From IMG/VR virus record IMGVR_UViG_3300021431_000009: DNA of 64,000 nucleotides. One strand, given 5' to 3'. The notes beneath the pieces are model-generated. The model saw only the letters and a program-made list of their open reading frames with translations, had not been told where the DNA came from and made no database searches. Origin of the DNA: an uncultured virus (IMG/VR IMGVR_UViG_3300021431_000009). Its lineage: Duplodnaviria > Heunggongvirae > Uroviricota > Caudoviricetes. This document shows positions 3,382 through 62,124 of the stretch, piece after piece (positions within the stretch are counted from its first letter, which is position 1; every line of letters starts with the position of its first letter). A program made the translations under genes and the position numbers.

Positions 3382-3419
3382 CCCACAAATGAAAATTTAA
3401 CCCTTTAAATCAAAGATTT

Positions 3420-3665
3420 ATGACTACAAAAGTTAAGACCCACAAACGTAAAGGAAAGAACAAGGTTTCCGTTGTTAAGGAGCATACCCGTAAGGGCGGT
3501 AAGAAGATGAAGAAGGGAGCAGGCGAAGAGTTCACCCAAAAGCAGGTGAACGCTTGTGATACCTCGAAATGTTCTACTACTGACTTGAAGAAGGGTGTCA
3601 AAGGAAAGTGGGGCAAGGCATTTGCCCGTAAAGCAAAGAAGGAACTAAAAGAGCGCTCTGAGTAA
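3420..3665 (+). CDS. Small highly basic protein (VKxHxRK..VxEHTR motif)
   Basis: 81 aa K/R-rich; N-terminus nearly identical to that of 48709..49035. Confidence 0.7.
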   Translation: MTTKVKTHKRKGKNKVSVVKEHTRKGGKKMKKGAGEEFTQKQVNACDTSKCSTTDLKKGVKGKWGKAFARKAKKELKERSE

Positions 3666-25162: not shown

Positions 25163-25237
25163 TATTGTTCAAAAATTAACCCAATCCCACAACTTAATGG
25201 GTGCGGACATTATTAATCTTTTAATATTTATAAAATT

Positions 25238-39303: not shown

Positions 39304-39335
39304 TTTGGAGAATCCATTATTTTTTACTATATTTG
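39304..39335 (+). promoter_or_regulatory. Bacteroidota-type promoter
   Basis: GAGTGA-TTTG-N20-TATATTTG. Confidence 0.8.
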
Positions 39336-39540: not shown

Positions 39541-39561
39541 CATTTTTAATTAAATCCCACA

Positions 39562-40776
39562 ATGGCTTATTACTTTTTTAAGACAATGGCCGATAAAGGC
39601 CGTAACAGACTCCGTGCATTGACGGGTCAGAAACTTGAGGATGGAACACCTGTAGATCCAACTCTTAATGTTCAGTCAGACAAGACTATCAGAACAATCT
39701 ATCCTCTTGGAACAATGTTCGTGTCGAACAAACTTGCTCAGGCATCGGGTTATTATGAGGCTGGACAAATTTATCCAGTTGGTTTACGCGATGATGAATA
39801 CAAGGACTCCGCACATCGACCTACTGAGGAAATGCGTCGTGCGTATGAAGTCTTTATTGGTGCAGTCGGTGATGATTTCCGTAGCGAAATTCCAGATGAG
39901 GATGAAGATAGTTCACGTTCCAGAACTTCCTTGTTGAGCAAGATGAAGACTAATGAGAAGTTGAATCCGCCAACTATTAAGGAACACGGTTTCTATGTAG
40001 AGCAGGACAATTGGTATCTTCTTCTGCGTAACATTCAGAATCAGGTAAACACCATGATGATTGGCCCAACGGGTACAGGTAAAACAGAGCTTATTCTTCT
40101 TGCTTGTAAGAAACTTGGAATTAAGTGCCATGTTTATGATATGGGTTCTATGTATGACCCGGTTGCAGGACTTCTCGGTGTTCATCGTCTCAGCAAGGGC
40201 GGTGTAAGTACCTTTGACTATGCAAAGTTTACTCAGGACATTCAGGAGCCTGGAGTAGTTCTTCTTGACGAGTTAAGCCGTGCGCCAGTCACCAGCTTGA
40301 ATATCTTATTCCCCTGCTTGGACTCAAGACGCTGCTTGCCAGTTGAAATTGCAGGCGGTGAGGATGTACGAAACATCAATATCCACCCCGACTGTACCTT
40401 TATTGCTACTGCAAACGTAGGTGCAGAGTACACAGGTACAATGTCAATGGATAGAGCACTTGTAGGACGTTTCTTCCCAGTTGAATTGGATTATATGCCT
40501 AATGCAGAAGAGAGAAAGGTGCTTGTAAAGCGTTGTGGTATTCCAGACTCTACTGCAAAACTTATTGTGGATGTGGCTACGAATGTTCGTTCTATGTACC
40601 GCAAGCAGGAGTTGAGCGCGTCTCTTTCTACTCGTGAGACTCTCATGGTTGGTGAATTGGTTGCGGATGGTTGGCCACTCCGTAGGGCTATGGAACTTGT
40701 ATTCTTACCTTTGTTTGAAGGTACGATGTCTGAGGGTGAGCGTGGTATTATTGCGAAATCATTAATGTCAAGATAA
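39562..40776 (+). CDS. MoxR/CbbQ-NirQ-NorQ family AAA+ ATPase
   Basis: GPTGTGKT, LLDELSRA, FIATAN, MDRALVGRF, LSTRE. Confidence 0.9.
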   Translation: MAYYFFKTMADKGRNRLRALTGQKLEDGTPVDPTLNVQSDKTIRTIYPLGTMFVSNKLAQASGYYEAGQIYPVGLRDDEYKDSAHRPTEEMRRAYEVFIGAVGDDFRSEIPDEDEDSSRSRTSLLSKMKTNEKLNPPTIKEHGFYVEQDNWYLLLRNIQNQVNTMMIGPTGTGKTELILLACKKLGIKCHVYDMGSMYDPVAGLLGVHRLSKGGVSTFDYAKFTQDIQEPGVVLLDELSRAPVTSLNILFPCLDSRRCLPVEIAGGEDVRNINIHPDCTFIATANVGAEYTGTMSMDRALVGRFFPVELDYMPNAEERKVLVKRCGIPDSTAKLIVDVATNVRSMYRKQELSASLSTRETLMVGELVADGWPLRRAMELVFLPLFEGTMSEGERGIIAKSLMSR

Positions 40777-40777
40777 T

Positions 40778-42727
40778 ATGCCAGTAAAGAAATTACGTGT
40801 CACTGATTCTTTGGTTGATTCTCTTATGGAGGATTGGCTTGAGAGAGACGGTGAAACTTTCGTTCATGTCCGTAAGACAGGCAGACTTGGCTGGGAAAAG
40901 GAACTTGAGGAGGGTGAGAGTTACTCTGCGTATATTCTTGAATCTCCGACACAAGAAGACCTTATCAAGCGTGCTTATAGTCTGGCAAAGGATATGATTG
41001 TGGTAATGGACCCACCTTTTAAGGTTATTATCAGAATCTCTAATAGCGGTACAGGTGGAACTGATGGACGTTTTGTTTATGTTAGTACAAGCGTATTCGA
41101 TGACCCCGAACTCTCCGTTGGTGAGAAGTTAGATACTTTCTTAGGAATAACAATCCATGAAGGATGTCATTTGCTTTACACGGATTTGTCTTGGTTAAAG
41201 CGAATAACCATTCCTATCGTAATGAATATATGGAATGTTATCGAGGATGAACGTATTGAGAGACTTTGCGGTGACTTGAAACCCGGACTTGCTAATTTCC
41301 TTGAGAAGTCGAAGTACTATGTGTTCGACCAATATTATCTTGACGTAGTTGTTCCAGCAGAAAAGGCCCGTGAGGAAGAAGAGAAGAAAATGATGGAAGC
41401 TGCTCTTGATGATGTTCCACCAGTAGAGGAACTTGAGGAGAAAGCTGAGGCTGAACTTGCAGAGAAAAAGAAACTCTCCACTCTTATGCGATTCCTCAAT
41501 TGCTTTATGAAGATTATTCGTTACCCGAAGTATCTTAAAGAGGAAGAGGTTGTTGAATTTGCAAAGTATCTTGTAGAGGTTAAGAAAGTTGTTCTTCCTT
41601 ATCCGACAACTACTGAACAGGCAGTGAAAGCTGCTTATAGGGTATTTGATATTGTTAAGGAACTCTATATTGATAAGGAGCGTGAAGAGGATGAAGATAA
41701 GGAAGAGAAGCGTTCTGATGAAGAAATTGAGGCAGAAGCAATGCGTAAATTGTCTGCTGATGCAAGTGATGCAGCAGGTAAGTTACGTAAGGTGAGTTCT
41801 TCTATGCCCTCGGAATCTGCTCCGTCAGGTGATGGCCGTTTATCTGATGATGATATGGCTGAGGCTGTAAAGGCAAAAGGCGGGCTGCTTGGTGAATTGT
41901 GTGAAGGCACAGTTGAACTTGGTGGTGGCAGAGATACATACTTTACATGGGCCAAAGATAACGAGAAAATTTATCGTGAATGTGCTGCAAGAGTAAGAAA
42001 GCACGTTCCTGCGATGTCTAAGATAATGAAAGGTCATTGTAGGGAATACAAACTTATTCATAGGTCAATGCGTAGCGGTGTTCTTGATACAAGCAAACTT
42101 GTTGAGGCGGTACAGGGTGTTCCGACGGTATATCTCCGTGAAGGTGAAGTCCATGCTGACAGGATAGCCGTATGTGTTCTTATTGATGAAAGTGGTTCAA
42201 TGGGTGGTTCACGTATAAATGCAGCTCGTGATACTGCGGTACTTATTAATGAGGCTATCGGGGATATGCCAAATGTGGAACTTTACATTTATGGTCATAC
42301 AGGTGATATAAGGGACTATCGTTCTACGGAAATGGTTATCTATCGTGAGAAAGGTTATTATCCGAGGTTTGCTCTTGGTAGCGTAACTGCAAAATGTGAG
42401 AACCGCGATGGTATTGCTATTATTGAAACTGCGAAGCGTGTACGTAATCAGACAAAGAATCCAGTTCTTATGTTCGTGTTATCTGATGGAGCACCAGCAG
42501 CAGGTGGCTATGGTGGCGCTACTGCAATGGACCATGTGAGACGGTGCGTGAATGATGCGGAGAAAATGGGCTTTTCTATTATTCAGGTCTGCATTAATCA
42601 TAGCTATGACCCTGCAAAGATGTTTAAGAACTACGTTATTCTTGAGGATATGAGTACACTCGCTTTTGAACTTAGCAAGAAAATTAAGAAGGCTGCAATG
42701 ACACTTGCAAAGGTTCATATTACATAG
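40778..42727 (+). CDS. vWA-domain partner protein (CobT/NorD-like) with N-terminal HExxH
   Basis: IHEGCHLLYT, NVIEDERIE, RSGVLD, LIDESGSM (MIDAS), VLSDGAP. Confidence 0.85.
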   Translation: MPVKKLRVTDSLVDSLMEDWLERDGETFVHVRKTGRLGWEKELEEGESYSAYILESPTQEDLIKRAYSLAKDMIVVMDPPFKVIIRISNSGTGGTDGRFVYVSTSVFDDPELSVGEKLDTFLGITIHEGCHLLYTDLSWLKRITIPIVMNIWNVIEDERIERLCGDLKPGLANFLEKSKYYVFDQYYLDVVVPAEKAREEEEKKMMEAALDDVPPVEELEEKAEAELAEKKKLSTLMRFLNCFMKIIRYPKYLKEEEVVEFAKYLVEVKKVVLPYPTTTEQAVKAAYRVFDIVKELYIDKEREEDEDKEEKRSDEEIEAEAMRKLSADASDAAGKLRKVSSSMPSESAPSGDGRLSDDDMAEAVKAKGGLLGELCEGTVELGGGRDTYFTWAKDNEKIYRECAARVRKHVPAMSKIMKGHCREYKLIHRSMRSGVLDTSKLVEAVQGVPTVYLREGEVHADRIAVCVLIDESGSMGGSRINAARDTAVLINEAIGDMPNVELYIYGHTGDIRDYRSTEMVIYREKGYYPRFALGSVTAKCENRDGIAIIETAKRVRNQTKNPVLMFVLSDGAPAAGGYGGATAMDHVRRCVNDAEKMGFSIIQVCINHSYDPAKMFKNYVILEDMSTLAFELSKKIKKAAMTLAKVHIT

Positions 42728-42730
42728 CGA

Positions 42731-42762
42731 TTTGGAAAATTCAAAAGAATATTGTATATTTA
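42731..42762 (+). promoter_or_regulatory. Bacteroidota-type promoter (TATATTTA variant)
   Basis: TTTG-N20-TATATTTA. Confidence 0.7.
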
Positions 42763-42765
42763 CAT

Positions 42766-42835
42766 TGCTTTATGAGAATCGTGATTAGTCGTGAGAGAAG
42801 TAAAGCATAGAGGGAGGTTGTGGGATTCCTCCCTC
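42766..42835 (+). ncRNA. Putative two-hairpin small RNA / tRNA leader
   Basis: TGCTTTA..TAAAGCA stem, then GAGGGAGG-(TTGTGGGATT)-CCTCCCTC; lies between a promoter and tRNA-Lys. Confidence 0.45.
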
Positions 42836-42840
42836 AAATT

Positions 42841-42913
42841 CTGAGAATAGCTCAGTTGGTAGAGCACTGCACTTTTAATGCAGGGGTCGAGGGTTCGAGT
42901 CCCTCTTCTTAGA
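42841..42913 (+). tRNA. tRNA-Lys(UUU)
   Basis: Cloverleaf: CTGAGAA/TTCTTAG acceptor, CTGCA-CTTTTAA-TGCAG, GAGGG-TTCGAGT-CCCTC; no encoded CCA. Confidence 0.95.
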
Positions 42914-42931
42914 CTAAAACTTTTAAATATT

Positions 42932-43807
42932 ATGACAGAACGTAGAGGTTTAGGAAGAATATTGAAAGGAATATCCGATAAGGAATCTGCCACAGAACGC
43001 AAATCAGTTGTTGCCGATATTGATAAGGCGTGTTCTGATGGATTAACCATGTCGGGTTTCTTTTCAATGAAGAACATCAAGTTTCAATTAAAGAATCTTC
43101 TCTATCTGATGGATGAAGACGAGGACTTCAATAGAGATATGTTCTTTGTGGAGTTCCAGAAACTTTATTCATTGGTAATGGCCCCAGACAAAAGAGCTGA
43201 GGGAGTATTTCATCCGTCACAGTTACTGCAAGGTTGCCCACGTCAGATGGCTTATGACATTAGTGGAACAGAACCATCTGATAGAACAAAGCGTAGAATT
43301 GGTGCTGCATTGCAGAGAACATTTGACGTTGGAACATGGTATCATATTTATGTGCAGAATCTTCTCTATCAGCTTGGTTTGCTTGAAGCTGCTGAGGTTC
43401 CAGTAGTGAATAAGGAGAAATACTTGAACGGAAAAGCTGATGGTGTCTTTAAGAAAGAGGTGTTTGGTGAAAAAGTTGTTCTTGAGATAAAGACAATGAA
43501 CTCCTGGAATTATGGAAAGGCAGTATTCAAACCCTTTAAGAAGCATGAATTTCAGGCATCCCTTTATGCACGAGAACTTGGTATAAAGAAAGTCCTATAC
43601 CTATATATTAATAAGGACACTTCTGAAATGAAGGATTTTCTTATGCCTACAAATGAGGAAGAACTTGCAGAAGCAGATAAGAAAATGAATAAGGTTATCG
43701 AATCGGTTAAGGAGGGAGAACTCCCACCAAGACCTTCTGCTTGTACTGACAGACTTTGTGATTTGGCAGTCGATTGTCCGTTTGCAACATTATGTTTTAA
43801 AAAATAA
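42932..43807 (+). CDS. Cas4-like PD-(D/E)xK exonuclease with Fe-S cysteines
   Basis: FHPSQL..CPR, GTWYH, GKADG, LEIKT, QASLY, C-terminal C..C..CPF..C; track start overlaps tRNA, real ATG 42932. Confidence 0.8.
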   Translation: MTERRGLGRILKGISDKESATERKSVVADIDKACSDGLTMSGFFSMKNIKFQLKNLLYLMDEDEDFNRDMFFVEFQKLYSLVMAPDKRAEGVFHPSQLLQGCPRQMAYDISGTEPSDRTKRRIGAALQRTFDVGTWYHIYVQNLLYQLGLLEAAEVPVVNKEKYLNGKADGVFKKEVFGEKVVLEIKTMNSWNYGKAVFKPFKKHEFQASLYARELGIKKVLYLYINKDTSEMKDFLMPTNEEELAEADKKMNKVIESVKEGELPPRPSACTDRLCDLAVDCPFATLCFKK

Positions 43808-45504: not shown

Positions 45505-45513
45505 CAACCGATA

Positions 45514-45585
45514 AAGGGAATAGCTCAGGTACAGAGCGCAAGACGGTTAATCTTGAGGTCAATGGTGCAAGTCCATTTTCCCTTT
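45514..45585 (+). tRNA. tRNA-Asn(GUU), atypical
   Basis: AAGGGAA/TTCCCTT acceptor, CAAGA-CGGTTAA-TCTTG (G at position 33), T-loop TGCAAGT. Confidence 0.75.
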
Positions 45586-45592
45586 TTCATAT

Positions 45593-45665: not shown

Positions 45666-45668
45666 CTA

Positions 45669-45745
45669 AGGGAGAACGCGCAACAGTTATAAGACCAGAC
45701 ACGGATGGCATATACCTTACATAAGGTAAGTTCGCAAGCTCCCTA
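45669..45745 (+). ncRNA. Putative structured ncRNA after tRNA-Met
   Basis: AGGGAG...CTCCCT closing stem, GCG/CGC and AAC/GTT extensions, internal TACCTT..AAGGTA hairpin. Confidence 0.4.
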
Positions 45746-45801
45746 TCCTACATTCAAGGTTACTGCATTGAGCAGATTGATTTTATCTAACGTAGCAAAT
45801 T

Positions 45802-46089
45802 ATGGAAGTACAGAAAGAAGACACCTTAAAGGTACTCAGATGTAAATCATCTACCGATGCAAACAAGCTCGCTGGGAGTATTCACTCTACGTATGTAGAT
45901 AACCCAGATGCACAGATTATCATCCGCGTTATAGGGGCGGGGTCGTTAAATCAGGCAGTAAAAGCCGCAATTATCAGTAACAAGTTCTTCGCTAAGAAGG
46001 GATTAGTTGTTGTTTTGCAGCCGTCTTTCCAAGACACTTCCGAGTCGATGACTGCAATAGAACTAAAAGTTTTACTCCGAAAGCAGTAA
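45802..46089 (+). CDS. spoVS: SpoVS family (Alba-like) nucleic-acid-binding protein
   Basis: KLAGSI...IGAGSLNQAVKA...PSF...TAIELKV matches the SpoVS signature. Confidence 0.85.
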   Translation: MEVQKEDTLKVLRCKSSTDANKLAGSIHSTYVDNPDAQIIIRVIGAGSLNQAVKAAIISNKFFAKKGLVVVLQPSFQDTSESMTAIELKVLLRKQ

Positions 46090-46330: not shown

Positions 46331-46368
46331 GAGGGAGTCCATCGAAGGTGGGTTCCCTCCATTTGTTT
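46331..46368 (+). terminator. Terminator-like hairpin before queC
   Basis: GAGGGAGTCCATC/GGTGGGTTCCCTC followed by CATTTGTTT. Confidence 0.65.
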
Positions 46369-46383
46369 AAAATAGATAAGAAT

Positions 46384-47112
46384 ATGGAAAGAAAAGTATT
46401 ATTATTCTCAGGAGGTTTTGATTCAATGTTACAAGAATGGCTGATAAAACCAGACGTTCTTCTTTACGTGGATATGAAAACTTCCTATTCAGAAAGAGAA
46501 CTCGAAGCACTTGACCGATTGCCCGACTCATACAAAAAGCGCCTTGTCATTAAGGAACTTCCACTTGGTGAGTACGAAAGAGATAACAAGTATCTTCCCT
46601 ATCGGAATCTAATTCTCGGCACAATTGCTATGGAGTATGGCCAACACGTTTATTTTGGCTTCAACTACATGGATGATGCTCCAGACAAGGATAGAATGTT
46701 CCTTGACAAGACCACAAGTTTGTTCAAACACCTTAATATGCACTGCATAGGCGATATGGGTTGGCGTTCTACCAACTTTAGCTTCAATGCACCTTTCATG
46801 CGCCTTACGAAAACTGAAATGGTTGCTGAGGCTCTAAAGAAAGGTATGCCGGTTGAACTTATCCAAAATATCCGCACTTGCTATGATGGATTATCGCACA
46901 AGGGATGCGGTGTTTGTTATGTGTGCTTGCATAAGGCAGTCGCCCTACTCAACAATGATATTTACAAGGAGGGTTTGTTCGATTCTCCTATTACTATAGA
47001 GAAACTTGAAGAAAGAATAAGGTATGCCCAAGAGAACCCCGGTTCCTACAAAAAGAAGTATATATTCGACCTCAAGAAAGCCATCGAGAAGTTACGACTC
47101 TTCCAAAAATAA
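46384..47112 (+). CDS. queC: QueC-like 7-cyano-7-deazaguanine synthase
   Basis: LLFSGGFDS PP-loop, YLPYRNL, TKTEMV, TCY...GCGVCYVC. Confidence 0.85.
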   Translation: MERKVLLFSGGFDSMLQEWLIKPDVLLYVDMKTSYSERELEALDRLPDSYKKRLVIKELPLGEYERDNKYLPYRNLILGTIAMEYGQHVYFGFNYMDDAPDKDRMFLDKTTSLFKHLNMHCIGDMGWRSTNFSFNAPFMRLTKTEMVAEALKKGMPVELIQNIRTCYDGLSHKGCGVCYVCLHKAVALLNNDIYKEGLFDSPITIEKLEERIRYAQENPGSYKKKYIFDLKKAIEKLRLFQK

Positions 47113-48010: not shown

Positions 48011-48722
48011 GAAAAGAATGAAGCTCGTTCGTGATGCAGAGGATTCTGAAGCCCTCAAGAAGCATCTTTGTCCATTCTTTGAGAAAGGAGGACACCCGGA
48101 TTGCGTTACTTGCAGGCGAACAGAATCAGATCTTGACGAATGTCGTGACTACTACCTTGAGCGCATTGCACTGAATCCAATGGATATTTGGTGTGAGGAC
48201 TTTGACAAGTTACTTGTTCAGAAACGTGACAAGGTTGACCTTGAGGATGTTGTTGGTATTGGTATCAATTGCGACTCTTGCTATATGTCGGACAAATGCC
48301 CATTGTATAAGCGCGGGTATGTTTGCGGTATCAAGTGGGACACCAACAGGCCCAAGACTCCTATGGAGTTCATGGACTTTCTTATCAATGTTCAGTATGA
48401 GCGTGTGAAACGCACGGCGGTATTTGAGAAAATTGATGGAGGTGTTCCAGACGCTAACCTTTCTTCTGAAATGGACAGACTTACTGACTTCATCAATACT
48501 AAGGATGCAATGGGTCGTGAGAAATTTTCCATTAATCTTGAGGCAAGTGGCCCTGCTCGTAATGAAGGTGGTGGTATTCTCTCTAAGATTTTCGGCGGTG
48601 GAAGTGCGACTCCTGCTGTCGCTGCTAAACCTACGGTAGCGTTGCCAACTGAGACTGCTGAATATGTAGAAATTCCTGCTGAACCAGAAAAAGTAAAGAA
48701 GAGAAGACATGAAAACGATTGA
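47994..48722 (+). CDS. Cys-rich protein coupled to the TGT-like gene
   Basis: Two Cys clusters (CPF..CVTC..C; CDSC..CP..C); overlaps previous gene. Confidence 0.6.
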   Translation: MKESVEKRMKLVRDAEDSEALKKHLCPFFEKGGHPDCVTCRRTESDLDECRDYYLERIALNPMDIWCEDFDKLLVQKRDKVDLEDVVGIGINCDSCYMSDKCPLYKRGYVCGIKWDTNRPKTPMEFMDFLINVQYERVKRTAVFEKIDGGVPDANLSSEMDRLTDFINTKDAMGREKFSINLEASGPARNEGGGILSKIFGGGSATPAVAAKPTVALPTETAEYVEIPAEPEKVKKRRHEND

Positions 48723-49035
48723 TGTTAAAAAGCACAAGCGTAAGGGCCGTAATAAGGTTTCCGTTGTGCGAAAACACAAGAGGCTCACTCATAGGGTACA
48801 CAATGGTAGGCGTGAGGTATTCGTTGACGGCTTTTGGAAACACGATGATTACCCTAATGCACCGAAACCCGGATGGTCTTATGAGAGACTTGTGAAAGAG
48901 CGTGCTAATCTTGCAAAAGACTTGGAGGAGGGATTGCATGGCGCACAGATTCTTCCTGCACGTAAATTCGGGTTGCTCACAAGACGAATCAAGAAGATAG
49001 ACCGTATCTTAAAGAAAAAGAGACCCACAGAGTGA
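48709..49035 (+). CDS. Small basic protein, paralog of 3420..3665
   Basis: VKKHKRKGRNKVSVVRKHKR. Confidence 0.7.
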   Translation: MKTIDVKKHKRKGRNKVSVVRKHKRLTHRVHNGRREVFVDGFWKHDDYPNAPKPGWSYERLVKERANLAKDLEEGLHGAQILPARKFGLLTRRIKKIDRILKKKRPTE

Positions 49036-49067
49036 TTTGTGGGTTTCAATTTTTCTTTGTATATTTA
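49036..49067 (+). promoter_or_regulatory. Bacteroidota-type promoter (TATATTTA variant)
   Basis: GAGTGA-TTTG-N20-TATATTTA. Confidence 0.7.
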
Positions 49068-50202: not shown

Positions 50203-50916
50203 ATGTTAGCAGTAAACACAATTTACCCCGCATTTATGGGAGAAGTCAATTGTCACGGTATCGGGGTTCCGTGTACGTTTGTAAGATTGGCTGGATGTAA
50301 TCTCCGTTGTTACTTTAAGACCAAGGGAACTCTTTGCGATACTCCAGAGGCTCTTGAAAGAAAAAGTGGTCGTTCAATGACCGAGGTTGAGATATTGAAG
50401 ACGGTACAGAACCTCAAACGTAAGGTGGTGTGCCTTACAGGAGGAGAGCCACTCATGCAGGATGTGTCGTTGCTCCTTGAGCTTTTGTCCTATAATGGGT
50501 TCTACACGGTTATAGAGACTAACGGCTCAGTCAATATTGATGGTTATCGTTATTACAAGAACGTTAGCTTTGTCATTGACTACAAGAGTAAATCATCAGG
50601 TGAAAAGGAGAAGATGATTGCTAAGAATTGGGGTCTCATGGATAAGGATGATTACATTAAATTTGTAATTGATACTGAAGAAGACTACGTTGAGGCTAAG
50701 ATGTGGATGGGTTCCAACCTTAATTTCAAAGGTAACATTGCTTTTGGATTATTTTGGGGTGCCGAAGTAGGCTATCAGCAGCTCATTCAGATGATGATTA
50801 AGGACAAGCTCAATCATGTGTTCCTTAATATGCAGACGCATAAAATGGCTTGCTTGTATGATGATTTTAGGGGAAATGATGTATTTAAGAAAATTTTTAT
50901 CCCGAAAAATTTGTAG
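50203..50916 (+). CDS. queE: QueE-like radical SAM 7-carboxy-7-deazaguanine synthase
   Basis: FVRLAGCNLRC...CDT, LTGGEPL, IETNGS, QTHK. Confidence 0.85.
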   Translation: MLAVNTIYPAFMGEVNCHGIGVPCTFVRLAGCNLRCYFKTKGTLCDTPEALERKSGRSMTEVEILKTVQNLKRKVVCLTGGEPLMQDVSLLLELLSYNGFYTVIETNGSVNIDGYRYYKNVSFVIDYKSKSSGEKEKMIAKNWGLMDKDDYIKFVIDTEEDYVEAKMWMGSNLNFKGNIAFGLFWGAEVGYQQLIQMMIKDKLNHVFLNMQTHKMACLYDDFRGNDVFKKIFIPKNL

Positions 50917-55256: not shown

Positions 55257-56285
55257 ATGGAACAGGACAATAACAAGAAAGATTTCAATGGAGGATTCCG
55301 TGAGTACCTTCAATCGAGTAAGGACAGTATGTTCGTTTTGGACTTGAGCGAATGTACGGTTATTGAGTGTGTCAATAAGATGTGCGAAATCAAGGAGCGT
55401 TCCCACCCGAAAATCAGGAGCAACTATCAGATGCTGATTAATAAGCTGACAAGTCTTGAGGAGCAATTCGGTTGTACCATTATGCCGGCAATGATTAGCT
55501 CCGTATTTTGGAATCACTTTATTCCGTTCCTTGCCGACCAACACTTAAAGTACTCAACCATTGGTCACGTTAAGACCAGCTTGATTTCGGTCCTTAATTG
55601 GAGTAGCAAGTATGGAGTGAAACTGAATCCGAGTTACTCCGAAGTGGATATTCCGAATTACATTCCGTCTAAGATTTCACTTACTCCAGATGAAATCTCA
55701 CATATCTACCATTTCAAGATAGGCAGGGAGGCATCGTATAGTTTCCGTATGAAGAAGGTTCTTAAAATGCGGAAGAACAAAATCGAGACTCTTGAGAAAG
55801 TACGTGATATGTTTGTATTGGGTTGTAATCTTGGGCAGCGCTATTCTGATTTAGTTCGTATCTCCCCGGAAAACTTTAAGAACGGTCAGTTCTCCATTGT
55901 GCAACAGAAAACAGGTAATAAGTGTTTTGTGCCAATTAACAGCTTGAGTATTGATGCGCGAATTACTTTTGCTATATTGGAGAAGTACAACTACCATGCT
56001 CCATATACGGGTGACATCAATAATTATAATAGCTATTTGCATGAGCTACTCTACCATATCGGTGAAGACTTTCTTGAGGAGGTTCACATTGATAATAAAA
56101 TCAACGGTGTAATTACACGTGAGACTAAGAAGAGGTATCAGCTCATTTCTTCCCACAGCGCAAGACGTTCCTTTGCCACAATTAACACGCTGCGTAATAT
56201 TCCTCGTAGTAAAATTCTGAGGGCCACAGGCCACTCCTCTGAAAAGGCGTTTGTACGCTATATTTGCTATGATGAAGAGTCTTAA
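55257..56285 (+). CDS. Tyrosine recombinase (core-binding + catalytic domains, no evident arm-binding domain)
   Basis: GQRYSD, QQKTG, SHSARRSF, TGHSS, VRYI catalytic residues; ATG 55257. Confidence 0.9.
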   Translation: MEQDNNKKDFNGGFREYLQSSKDSMFVLDLSECTVIECVNKMCEIKERSHPKIRSNYQMLINKLTSLEEQFGCTIMPAMISSVFWNHFIPFLADQHLKYSTIGHVKTSLISVLNWSSKYGVKLNPSYSEVDIPNYIPSKISLTPDEISHIYHFKIGREASYSFRMKKVLKMRKNKIETLEKVRDMFVLGCNLGQRYSDLVRISPENFKNGQFSIVQQKTGNKCFVPINSLSIDARITFAILEKYNYHAPYTGDINNYNSYLHELLYHIGEDFLEEVHIDNKINGVITRETKKRYQLISSHSARRSFATINTLRNIPRSKILRATGHSSEKAFVRYICYDEES

Positions 56286-61751: not shown

Positions 61752-61783
61752 TTTGGAAAATAAAAAGTAAATTGTTATATTTA
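61752..61783 (+). promoter_or_regulatory. Bacteroidota-type promoter (TATATTTA variant)
   Basis: AAGCGTGG-TTTG-N20-TATATTTA. Confidence 0.7.
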
Positions 61784-61818
61784 TGTTAGAATTAAAAATC
61801 CCACAAAACGTAACAGAT

Positions 61819-62124
61819 ATGGTAAGCAAGAGTATTGATGAAATGGCAAAAGCCACCTCACGAGTCTTGGAAGGCTTTCTCTGCGAGTATTGTGAGGTAA
61901 AAGGAATTGAAGAGAAAGAACTGAAGGAGCATCTTGTACTTGGGCATCACCCAGACGGCTCCCTTGATGTGAAAGAAGGAGAAATGGTTCTCTTTAGATG
62001 GTCTGCACTGAAGATTGAAAAAGAGAATGACAAATTCACAGCGGTTGGTAGTTTCTTCCTACTTGAGAAGGAGAGATTCCCAAAAACACTGAAGGCTATT
62101 CAAGAGCTAAAACACAAGAATTAA
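61819..62124 (+). CDS. Hypothetical protein
   Basis: Track ATG 61783 overlaps the -7 element, so in-frame ATG 61819 is preferred. Confidence 0.5.
   Translation: MVSKSIDEMAKATSRVLEGFLCEYCEVKGIEEKELKEHLVLGHHPDGSLDVKEGEMVLFRWSALKIEKENDKFTAVGSFFLLEKERFPKTLKAIQELKHKN

Follow-up and report, generated by a model that had tools for sequence, protein, structure and literature searches.

The window, by which we mean the whole 64-kb stretch of DNA analysed, is a segment of a Bacteroidota phage with capsid, replication, MoxR/CobS-like and CobT-like vWA genes, as assigned with Pfam and PHROGs. Among annotated relatives the nearest is Bacteroides phage BS162P1, whose host is Bacteroides salyersiae and which gave 69% over half of a 7-kb query. 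The locus described here runs in the order promoter, 66-aa open reading frame, moxR, vWA gene, promoter, hairpins, tRNA and PD-(D/E)XK nuclease gene, with the following features:

39304-39335, + strand: promoter of the operon of the 66-aa open reading frame, moxR and the vWA gene, recognised from sequence
39553-39562, + strand: putative primary target site, positions -9 to +1 of moxR, from motif match and covariation; predicted duplex -14.1 kcal/mol
39562-40776, + strand: moxR, MoxR/CbbQ/CobS-like AAA+ ATPase of 404 aa (Pfam AAA_5 and CbbQ_C; phrog_249)
40778-42727, + strand: CobT-like vWA protein of 649 aa (Pfam CobT_C)
42731-42762, + strand: Bacteroidota sigma-ABfr-type promoter, TTTG ... 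TATATTTA, recognised from sequence (consensus as given in the accessible text of PMC7366714)
42766-42807, + strand: 5' hairpin (hairpin 1) of the candidate small RNA (sRNA), from folding; sequence variable among relatives
42810-42835, + strand: seed hairpin (hairpin 2), from folding, with an 8-bp stem, G-rich in its 5' arm and C-rich in its 3' arm
42818-42827, + strand: seed loop UUGUGGGAUU, 10 nt, covarying with the moxR leader
42841-42914, + strand: tRNA-Lys(ttt), from ARAGORN and Rfam; variable or absent in relatives
42932-43807, + strand: PD-(D/E)XK nuclease gene downstream on the sRNA promoter, used as synteny anchor (weak Pfam PDDEXK_1 match, below cut-off)

An earlier note, made from the sequence alone, had placed a promoter at 42731-42762 ahead of a two-hairpin segment and a tRNA-Lys; the promoter motif, both hairpins and the tRNA were all found, and the second hairpin does expose the loop it described, with a computed unpaired probability of 0.82-1.0. 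Transcription of the candidate sRNA would start near 42766-42768, and in the window its 3' end would be set by 5' processing of the tRNA-Lys, presumably by RNase P. Folding of the resulting 74-nt segment gives -26.1 kcal/mol and leaves the loop open. The vWA gene ends 3 nt before the TTTG of the sRNA promoter, and no terminator was seen between the vWA gene and the hairpins. Rfam returned only the tRNA at gathering score for the locus, and no C4 family up to an E-value of 10.

Several other features of the window deserve mention. The QueC-like gene at 46348-47112 and the radical-SAM gene at 50203-50916 (both Pfam) suggest 7-deazaguanine DNA modification. A SpoVS-family gene (45802-46089, Pfam), found a few kilobases downstream of the nuclease in most relatives, is preceded by a 135-nt non-coding stretch (45667-45801) that begins after a tRNA-Met and has an outer AGGGAG/CTCCCT stem with an inner hairpin, possibly another structured RNA. 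The tRNA-Asn(gtt) at 45513-45586, called by ARAGORN, was not found by Rfam at gathering score and may therefore be atypical. Two small basic paralogous proteins (3420-3665 and 48709-49035) have a common N-terminal repeat and are both kept in relatives, and a hairpin at 49019-49048 with CCCACA/TGTGGG arms overlaps the -33 box of the promoter at 49036, its seed-like sequence lying in the stem, not the loop. Among the remaining non-coding hairpins of the window, the match to a leader never exceeded 8 nt.

Relatives were gathered through the nuclease, and 68 of the 106 loci examined had both a moxR start and a vWA end. A promoter, recognised by its -7 box, follows moxR-vWA in 66 of these 68, usually with two hairpins behind it; L014 and L086 have no such box after the vWA gene. 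Conservation of this promoter cannot be credited to the RNA alone, since it serves the tRNA and nuclease genes as well. The start site would lie at the foot of hairpin 1 in most lineages, and the stems of the seed hairpins differ in sequence, mostly with 6-14 pairs. In L061 and L064 the seed sits in hairpin 1. The RNAs of L090 and L182 fold weakly, and 5 of 22 RNAs have z above -0.6. RNAalifold on 11 seed hairpins gave 8 pairs, 7 of them with double changes, a result of little weight given the poor alignment and the many cells that break pairs.

The tRNA behind the hairpins is Lys in the window and Arg or Cys in other relatives; none was called in BS162P1, G005 or L090, and in BS162P1 and L090 a U-rich tract follows the hairpin. 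The tRNA is thus dispensable, so that the proposal of a switch derived from a tRNA leader suits the lineages with tRNA-Lys, -Arg or -Cys but not the three in which no tRNA was called. Separately, an insert of ~600 nt interrupts the tRNA-Arg behind the hairpins at the anticodon arm in L022 (9200-9600), G007 and G008 (L031, L033). It reads like an HNH endonuclease gene, an impression from sequence, and Rfam found no intron in L022 or L033.

We counted the complement of the loop, AATCCCACAA, on both strands of the window, as had been proposed. Exact copies lie on the + strand at 25183, 39553 and 61797 and on the - strand at 42818, so that all three complement positions given earlier were recovered. 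These four matches compare with a shuffle mean of 0.21, and four were reached in none of 100 shuffles, although the 10-mer was chosen post hoc and the comparison therefore overstates significance. If one mismatch is allowed, 11 matches appear where 5.79 are expected, a total reached in 4 of 100 shuffles. All three + copies are non-coding and lie upstream of starts, as claimed: at -9 to +1 of moxR, thus reaching the start codon, at -22 to -13 of the gene at 61819, and at -55 to -46 of an acidic gene. The partial copy reported behind the promoter at 3382 does exist, but we rejected it as a target site, since it is promoter-proximal DNA directly abutting the -7 box, which probably puts its C run ahead of the transcription start. 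The 25183 and 3382 copies are probably coincidences.

Each RNA was then compared with its own moxR leader, to examine the loop/target covariation in related phages that the note had put forward as a check. The 68 loci hold 21 distinct moxR leaders, 20 of which were used; that of L014 was left out because it has no promoter. Between own RNA and own leader, the longest Watson-Crick run is 8-13 nt in 17 of the 20 (mean 8.9 over all); two of the remaining three pair with one G·U and one, L022, with a mismatch. Control leaders, whose starts were placed less exactly, gave mean longest runs of 2.5 for vWA (n=20), 3.7 for the nuclease (n=20) and 4.1 for the SpoVS-like gene (n=19). When RNAs and leaders were permuted, the observed sum of 178 compared with a mean of 124 and a maximum of 159 in 20,000 permutations; the rows are related by descent, so this figure is descriptive and not a true p.

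The matched sequences fall into ten seed/target types, including two from loci fetched afterwards, and seed and target have changed together in many lineages, as in these examples:

RNA GUGGGAUU, leader AAUCCCAC: window, BS162P1, L032, L039 and L057
RNA GUGGGGAUUGU, leader ACAAUCCCCAC: L004
RNA UUUGUGAGAUU, leader AAUCUCACAAA: L013 group
RNA UUGGGAUUU, leader AAAUCCCAA: L005
RNA UGGGGUUUU, leader AAAACCCUA: L009, with one G·U
RNA AGUGGGUA, leader UACCCACU: L061 and L064
RNA GGAAUGUU, leader AACAUUCC: L071, a sequence unrelated to the other types
RNA GUGUUUUGUUG, leader CAACAAAACAC: L090
RNA UGGGGGUU, leader AACCCCCA: L176, later-fetched
RNA UAGUGUUUGU, leader ACAAACACUA: L182, later-fetched

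L022, the exception to this compensatory pattern, has a central A·C mismatch between RNA and leader, and in L008 and L009 all 9 pairs are retained, one internal pair being G·U; with two internal G·U cases against one A·C, the comparison is not significant. In the nuclease tree, where 5 of 16 inner branches are starred and 8 open and which gives no order of type changes, several seed types belong to different supported clades, and L004 and L039, though sisters, have different types, each matching its own leader. In L005 and L088, an arm of the first hairpin (RNA offset 23-31) is also complementary to moxR -6 to +3, and L061 has a similar second pairing register; pairing in the L005/L088 clade may thus be bipartite.

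A MoxR alignment then brought further loci, of which 70 previously unseen ones were analysed. Two of these, L176 and L182, belong to the family by synteny and MoxR identity and gave the new matched pairs above, of 8 and 10 nt; neither matched the -7 pattern used. Among 19 distinct, more distant moxR-vWA loci with a vWA end, for which starts were guessed, a single one had an 8-nt match, and this lay in coding sequence 210 nt downstream. The match of the in-family loci and its lack in the distant ones indicate that the element is confined to this phage family. The loop-target pairing first proposed from one sequence is thus backed by covariation across the family, and moxR is the constant predicted target.

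Further observations concern the genes themselves. In L060 and L063 moxR, and in L014 and L090 the vWA gene, matched as two separated pieces, which suggests inteins, introns or inserts. A separate MoxR group (L234-L252), 55-60% identical, lies in Cryptobacteroides/Muribaculaceae MAG contigs, with up to three per MAG; its vWA gene is often displaced by kilobases and there is no hairpin complement. MoxR relatives in Bacteroidales MAG contigs were rejected as family members, being other elements without the complement. A prophage search among species genomes by nuclease alignment gave 18 pattern hits and no confirmed case.

Next, we asked how far the predicted target set extends beyond moxR. Ten relatives were taken whole, with genes called by a simple script, and the leader count covered BS162P1, MT835482 and the seven that remained once G006, which has no promoter RNA, and the near-duplicate genomes G007 and G008 had been set aside. 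Of 1,099 non-moxR leaders in these nine relatives, 4 contain a complement of at least 9 nt to the loop of their own genome, against 0.29 in shuffles (none of 500 reached 4) and 0.63 expected from the genome-wide rate. Own loops gave 5 sites in 10 genome-loop pairs and loops of foreign seed type 1 in 60. These sites of at least 9 nt, on transcripts separate from the RNA, occur in three of the nine genomes, one in G003, two in G004 and one in G009; the other six have none, and lowering the threshold to 7 nt shows no enrichment of secondary sites in most genomes taken singly. A family of ~400-500-aa proteins (43-92% identity among the pairs listed) carries the tag of its own genome in 4 of 12 genomes (G002, G004, G007 and G009), in three spellings, and partly in G003. 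Its gene is absent from the window, and the rest of the source phage genome may hold this second conserved target gene. In the window, the features concerned are:

61797-61806, + strand: candidate secondary site at -22 to -13 of a 101-aa gene, from the motif; unpaired probability 0.87-0.99
61819-62124, + strand: 101-aa protein of unknown family behind a promoter at 61752-61783 (no Pfam or PHROG match; Atlas uninformative)
25183-25192, + strand: doubtful site at -55 to -46 of the acidic gene, from the motif; 45 nt from the start and partly base-paired

The 61797 site has some support as a secondary target: in G003 the homologue of the 61819 gene (36% identical) has, ~32 nt before its start, a 9-nt complement of that genome's own, different seed, while the other six of eight members of the gene family lack such a site. 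The 25183 site, by comparison, has no counterpart of at least 8 nt in the nine relatives tested and is a doubtful member of the proposed regulon; nor did the description of its acidic gene as Tudor-like hold, Pfam giving only a sub-threshold EAD7 match and PHROGs nothing. The leader of this gene (25163-25237) forms a hairpin of differing sequence in several relatives, with 25183 overlapping such a stem, and these hairpins resemble the autoregulated leaders of single-strand-binding proteins. Pfam, PHROGs and Atlas gave no name for the secondary target proteins. Judged by these sequence sites, the extra targets are best taken as real but lineage-specific, so that the idea of several phage mRNAs as targets is supported, but that of a fixed regulon of three or four genes is not.

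Taken together, these comparisons argue that the element is a real, conserved and co-evolving RNA-leader pair of gut Bacteroidota phages, with moxR as its core predicted target and a small, variable regulon. We consider RNA pairing of some kind highly probable, and we favour, as reasonably likely, repression of translation by a ~74-nt RNA that acts in trans and covers the initiation region. In this mechanism, host RNA polymerase would make the two-hairpin RNA from its own promoter behind moxR-vWA, and the 3' end would come from cleavage at the 5' side of the tRNA behind it or, in tRNA-less lineages, from a U-tract terminator. The open G/U-rich loop, computed as unpaired and complementary to the initiation region, would pair with the C-rich tag at about -15 to +1 of moxR. 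For all 10 nt of such a loop to pair, the stem would have to fray. The duplex of 9-13 bp would block the 30S subunit and dampen MoxR, and perhaps also the closely following vWA protein. This fits initiation in Bacteroidia, which uses unstructured, A-rich leaders without a Shine-Dalgarno sequence (SD), driven by A at -3, -6, -12 and -13 and by low structure in the accessible part of PMC9976891, and the leader-binding sRNA GibS, described in part of PMC7366714 as repressing SD-less Bacteroides mRNAs. Some lineages placed the same tag before one or two further genes, as the enrichment indicates, which would give a small, changing regulon; the distance of these sites implies action in trans. As the operon promoter and the sRNA promoter are of one class, the RNA would, speculatively, most likely be a ceiling or timer on MoxR as it accumulates.

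Expression data at the locus are limited to RNA contigs. In run X2, whose sample is possibly the source of this DNA and in which carry-over of DNA is possible, an RNA contig covers 42683-42945, the end of the vWA gene and the tRNA included, at a depth of 4.1 and without differences; it shows no discrete RNA. In X4, from another study, RNA contigs cover parts of moxR and vWA; none lies over the hairpins among the pieces listed, a gap that carries no weight, and this run too shows no discrete RNA. High depth over 42725-43006 was rejected as an sRNA signal, as it stems from tRNAs of other organisms (loose ends at 42847-42848).

The X2 contig, which bridges the vWA end and the hairpins, together with the lack of a terminator between them, would also fit long-range pairing in cis, in which the moxR-vWA mRNA has the hairpins as its 3' tail and folds back 3.3 kb onto its own initiation region, while the promoter serves only the downstream genes. 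That moxR is the sole constant target agrees with this, as does L014, which lacks the promoter but has a matching hairpin 9 nt behind vWA. The enriched, covarying sites at least 20 kb away need trans action, however, and the start site placed at the foot of hairpin 1 in most lineages also speaks for a separate RNA, so that we hold pairing in cis to be an unlikely substitute; with no terminator in between, it may work alongside trans action.

The sign of the effect could also be reversed, with a C-rich tag that weakens the leader until the RNA binds, or a duplex that recruits a factor or the ribosome. Few of these leaders contain CCC (2-9 of 95-138 per genome), which displaces favoured adenines, and phage sRNAs can activate, as the available text on PreS describes for dnaN (10.1101/2024.10.31.621285). 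The duplex would, however, cover the ribosome footprint up to the start codon, and structure in the leader lowers initiation in Bacteroidia, as far as the accessible part of PMC9976891 describes it. The 61797 site is, moreover, already open (0.87-0.99) and the moxR site only partly paired (0.25-0.92). Activation or stabilisation is accordingly rather improbable, and repression by the trans-acting RNA remains our preferred reading.

The alternative offered in the earlier note, a protein operator (DNA or RNA) with the hairpin copy as decoy or another operator, draws on the position of two window copies 14-20 nt after a -7 box, where repressors frequently bind. A protein would need re-specifying ten times to follow ten matched yet different pairs. 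The motif is always sense in leaders and antisense in the hairpin, a decoy for an RNA-binding protein would have the same sense as its target, and in G004, G007 and G009 the sites follow start codons, not promoters; an operator is thus very improbable. Coincidence, with a terminator-like or processing hairpin whose loop happens to match, gains something from the short motif, its post hoc choice and the two window copies already set aside, but covariation across lineages and in later-fetched loci, and the single 8-nt match in coding sequence among the 19 distant loci, largely refute it for moxR and leave it barely credible overall. Inversion of the moxR-vWA segment by a tyrosine recombinase (one is encoded at 55257-56285), with the 39553 and 42818 copies as covarying inverted repeats flanking both genes, is exceedingly improbable, as all 76 loci that contain both vWA and the nuclease, many of them near-duplicates, show them in one orientation, contigs of four runs (2 DNA, 2 RNA) show no joints, and the copies match over only 8-13 nt with G·U-type differences.

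With a predicted target, natural compensatory pairs in ten types and a cultured member, BS162P1, on Bacteroides salyersiae, repression by the trans-acting RNA is directly testable. It could show how short loop seeds control SD-less mRNAs without Hfq, provide orthogonal RNA/leader pairs as a ready set for Bacteroides genetics, and point to a dose-sensitive function of the phage MoxR-vWA pair, of which little is understood. A phage MoxR is needed to overcome one defence system in E. coli, according to the accessible part of PMC13716836. A bolder picture, to which we give only a small chance, is an addressing system of Bacteroidota phages, whose hosts disregard Shine-Dalgarno sequences: short tags before chosen starts would be read by a hairpin RNA re-keyed per lineage, insulating co-infecting relatives as in P1/P7 heteroimmunity; pairing might license translation, and the system would set the timing of a MoxR-vWA chaperone with a possible role against host defence.

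Few phage-encoded regulatory RNAs have been described, by the account in the available text of 10.1101/2024.10.31.621285, and our literature search found no regulatory RNA of a Bacteroidota phage and no description of this one ('BS162P1' gave 0 hits). The searched supplement files of PMC10690425 contain none of the four seed strings or two dataset numbers looked for, and the hairpin may be listed as an unnamed candidate in the remaining ones. The accessible part of 10.64898/2026.09.22.753630 makes no mention of MoxR or vWA.

Among known systems, the candidate shares with other RNAs some of its properties. The spacer RNAs of E. coli tRNA precursors are likewise by-products of tRNA processing with a base-pairing role; they act as sponges that bind sRNAs, whereas the partner of the candidate would be an mRNA leader and its tRNA is dispensable. 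In the available text on PreS/LPR1 of phage lambda (10.1101/2024.10.31.621285), an unpaired seed is complementary to a motif common to several targets, and the candidate also combines an unpaired seed with a motif before several genes in some lineages; PreS is Hfq-associated and acts mainly on host genes, whereas the sites found so far for the candidate are on phage genes, and Bacteroides has no obvious Hfq according to the accessible part of PMC7366714. According to the same source, the sRNA GibS of Bacteroides thetaiotaomicron acts in trans and represses SD-less mRNAs by binding around their start codon, the position also predicted here; GibS is host-encoded and 145 nt long, with a long unstructured 5' seed, whereas the candidate is phage-encoded, with a short loop seed that changes with its target. 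A further likeness is to c4 of P1 and P7, in the accessible part of PMC5320573 a phage RNA of ~77 nt, cut by RNase P from a precursor, whose loops pair with phage mRNA and partly cover the ribosome-binding site, with a variable loop setting specificity in immunity. The candidate is also phage-encoded and of similar size, with a loop complementary to a phage mRNA initiation region. By that account c4 has three stems and two loops and is itself an RNase P substrate, whereas the candidate, which has no Rfam C4 match, has two side-by-side hairpins with one seed and would either remain as the 5' by-product of tRNA cleavage or be ended by a terminator; c4 acts in immunity, and the candidate lies behind its own target operon, with moxR as predicted target. 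As loop and target have changed together in many lineages, the candidate is probably a new phage regulatory RNA that blocks translation.
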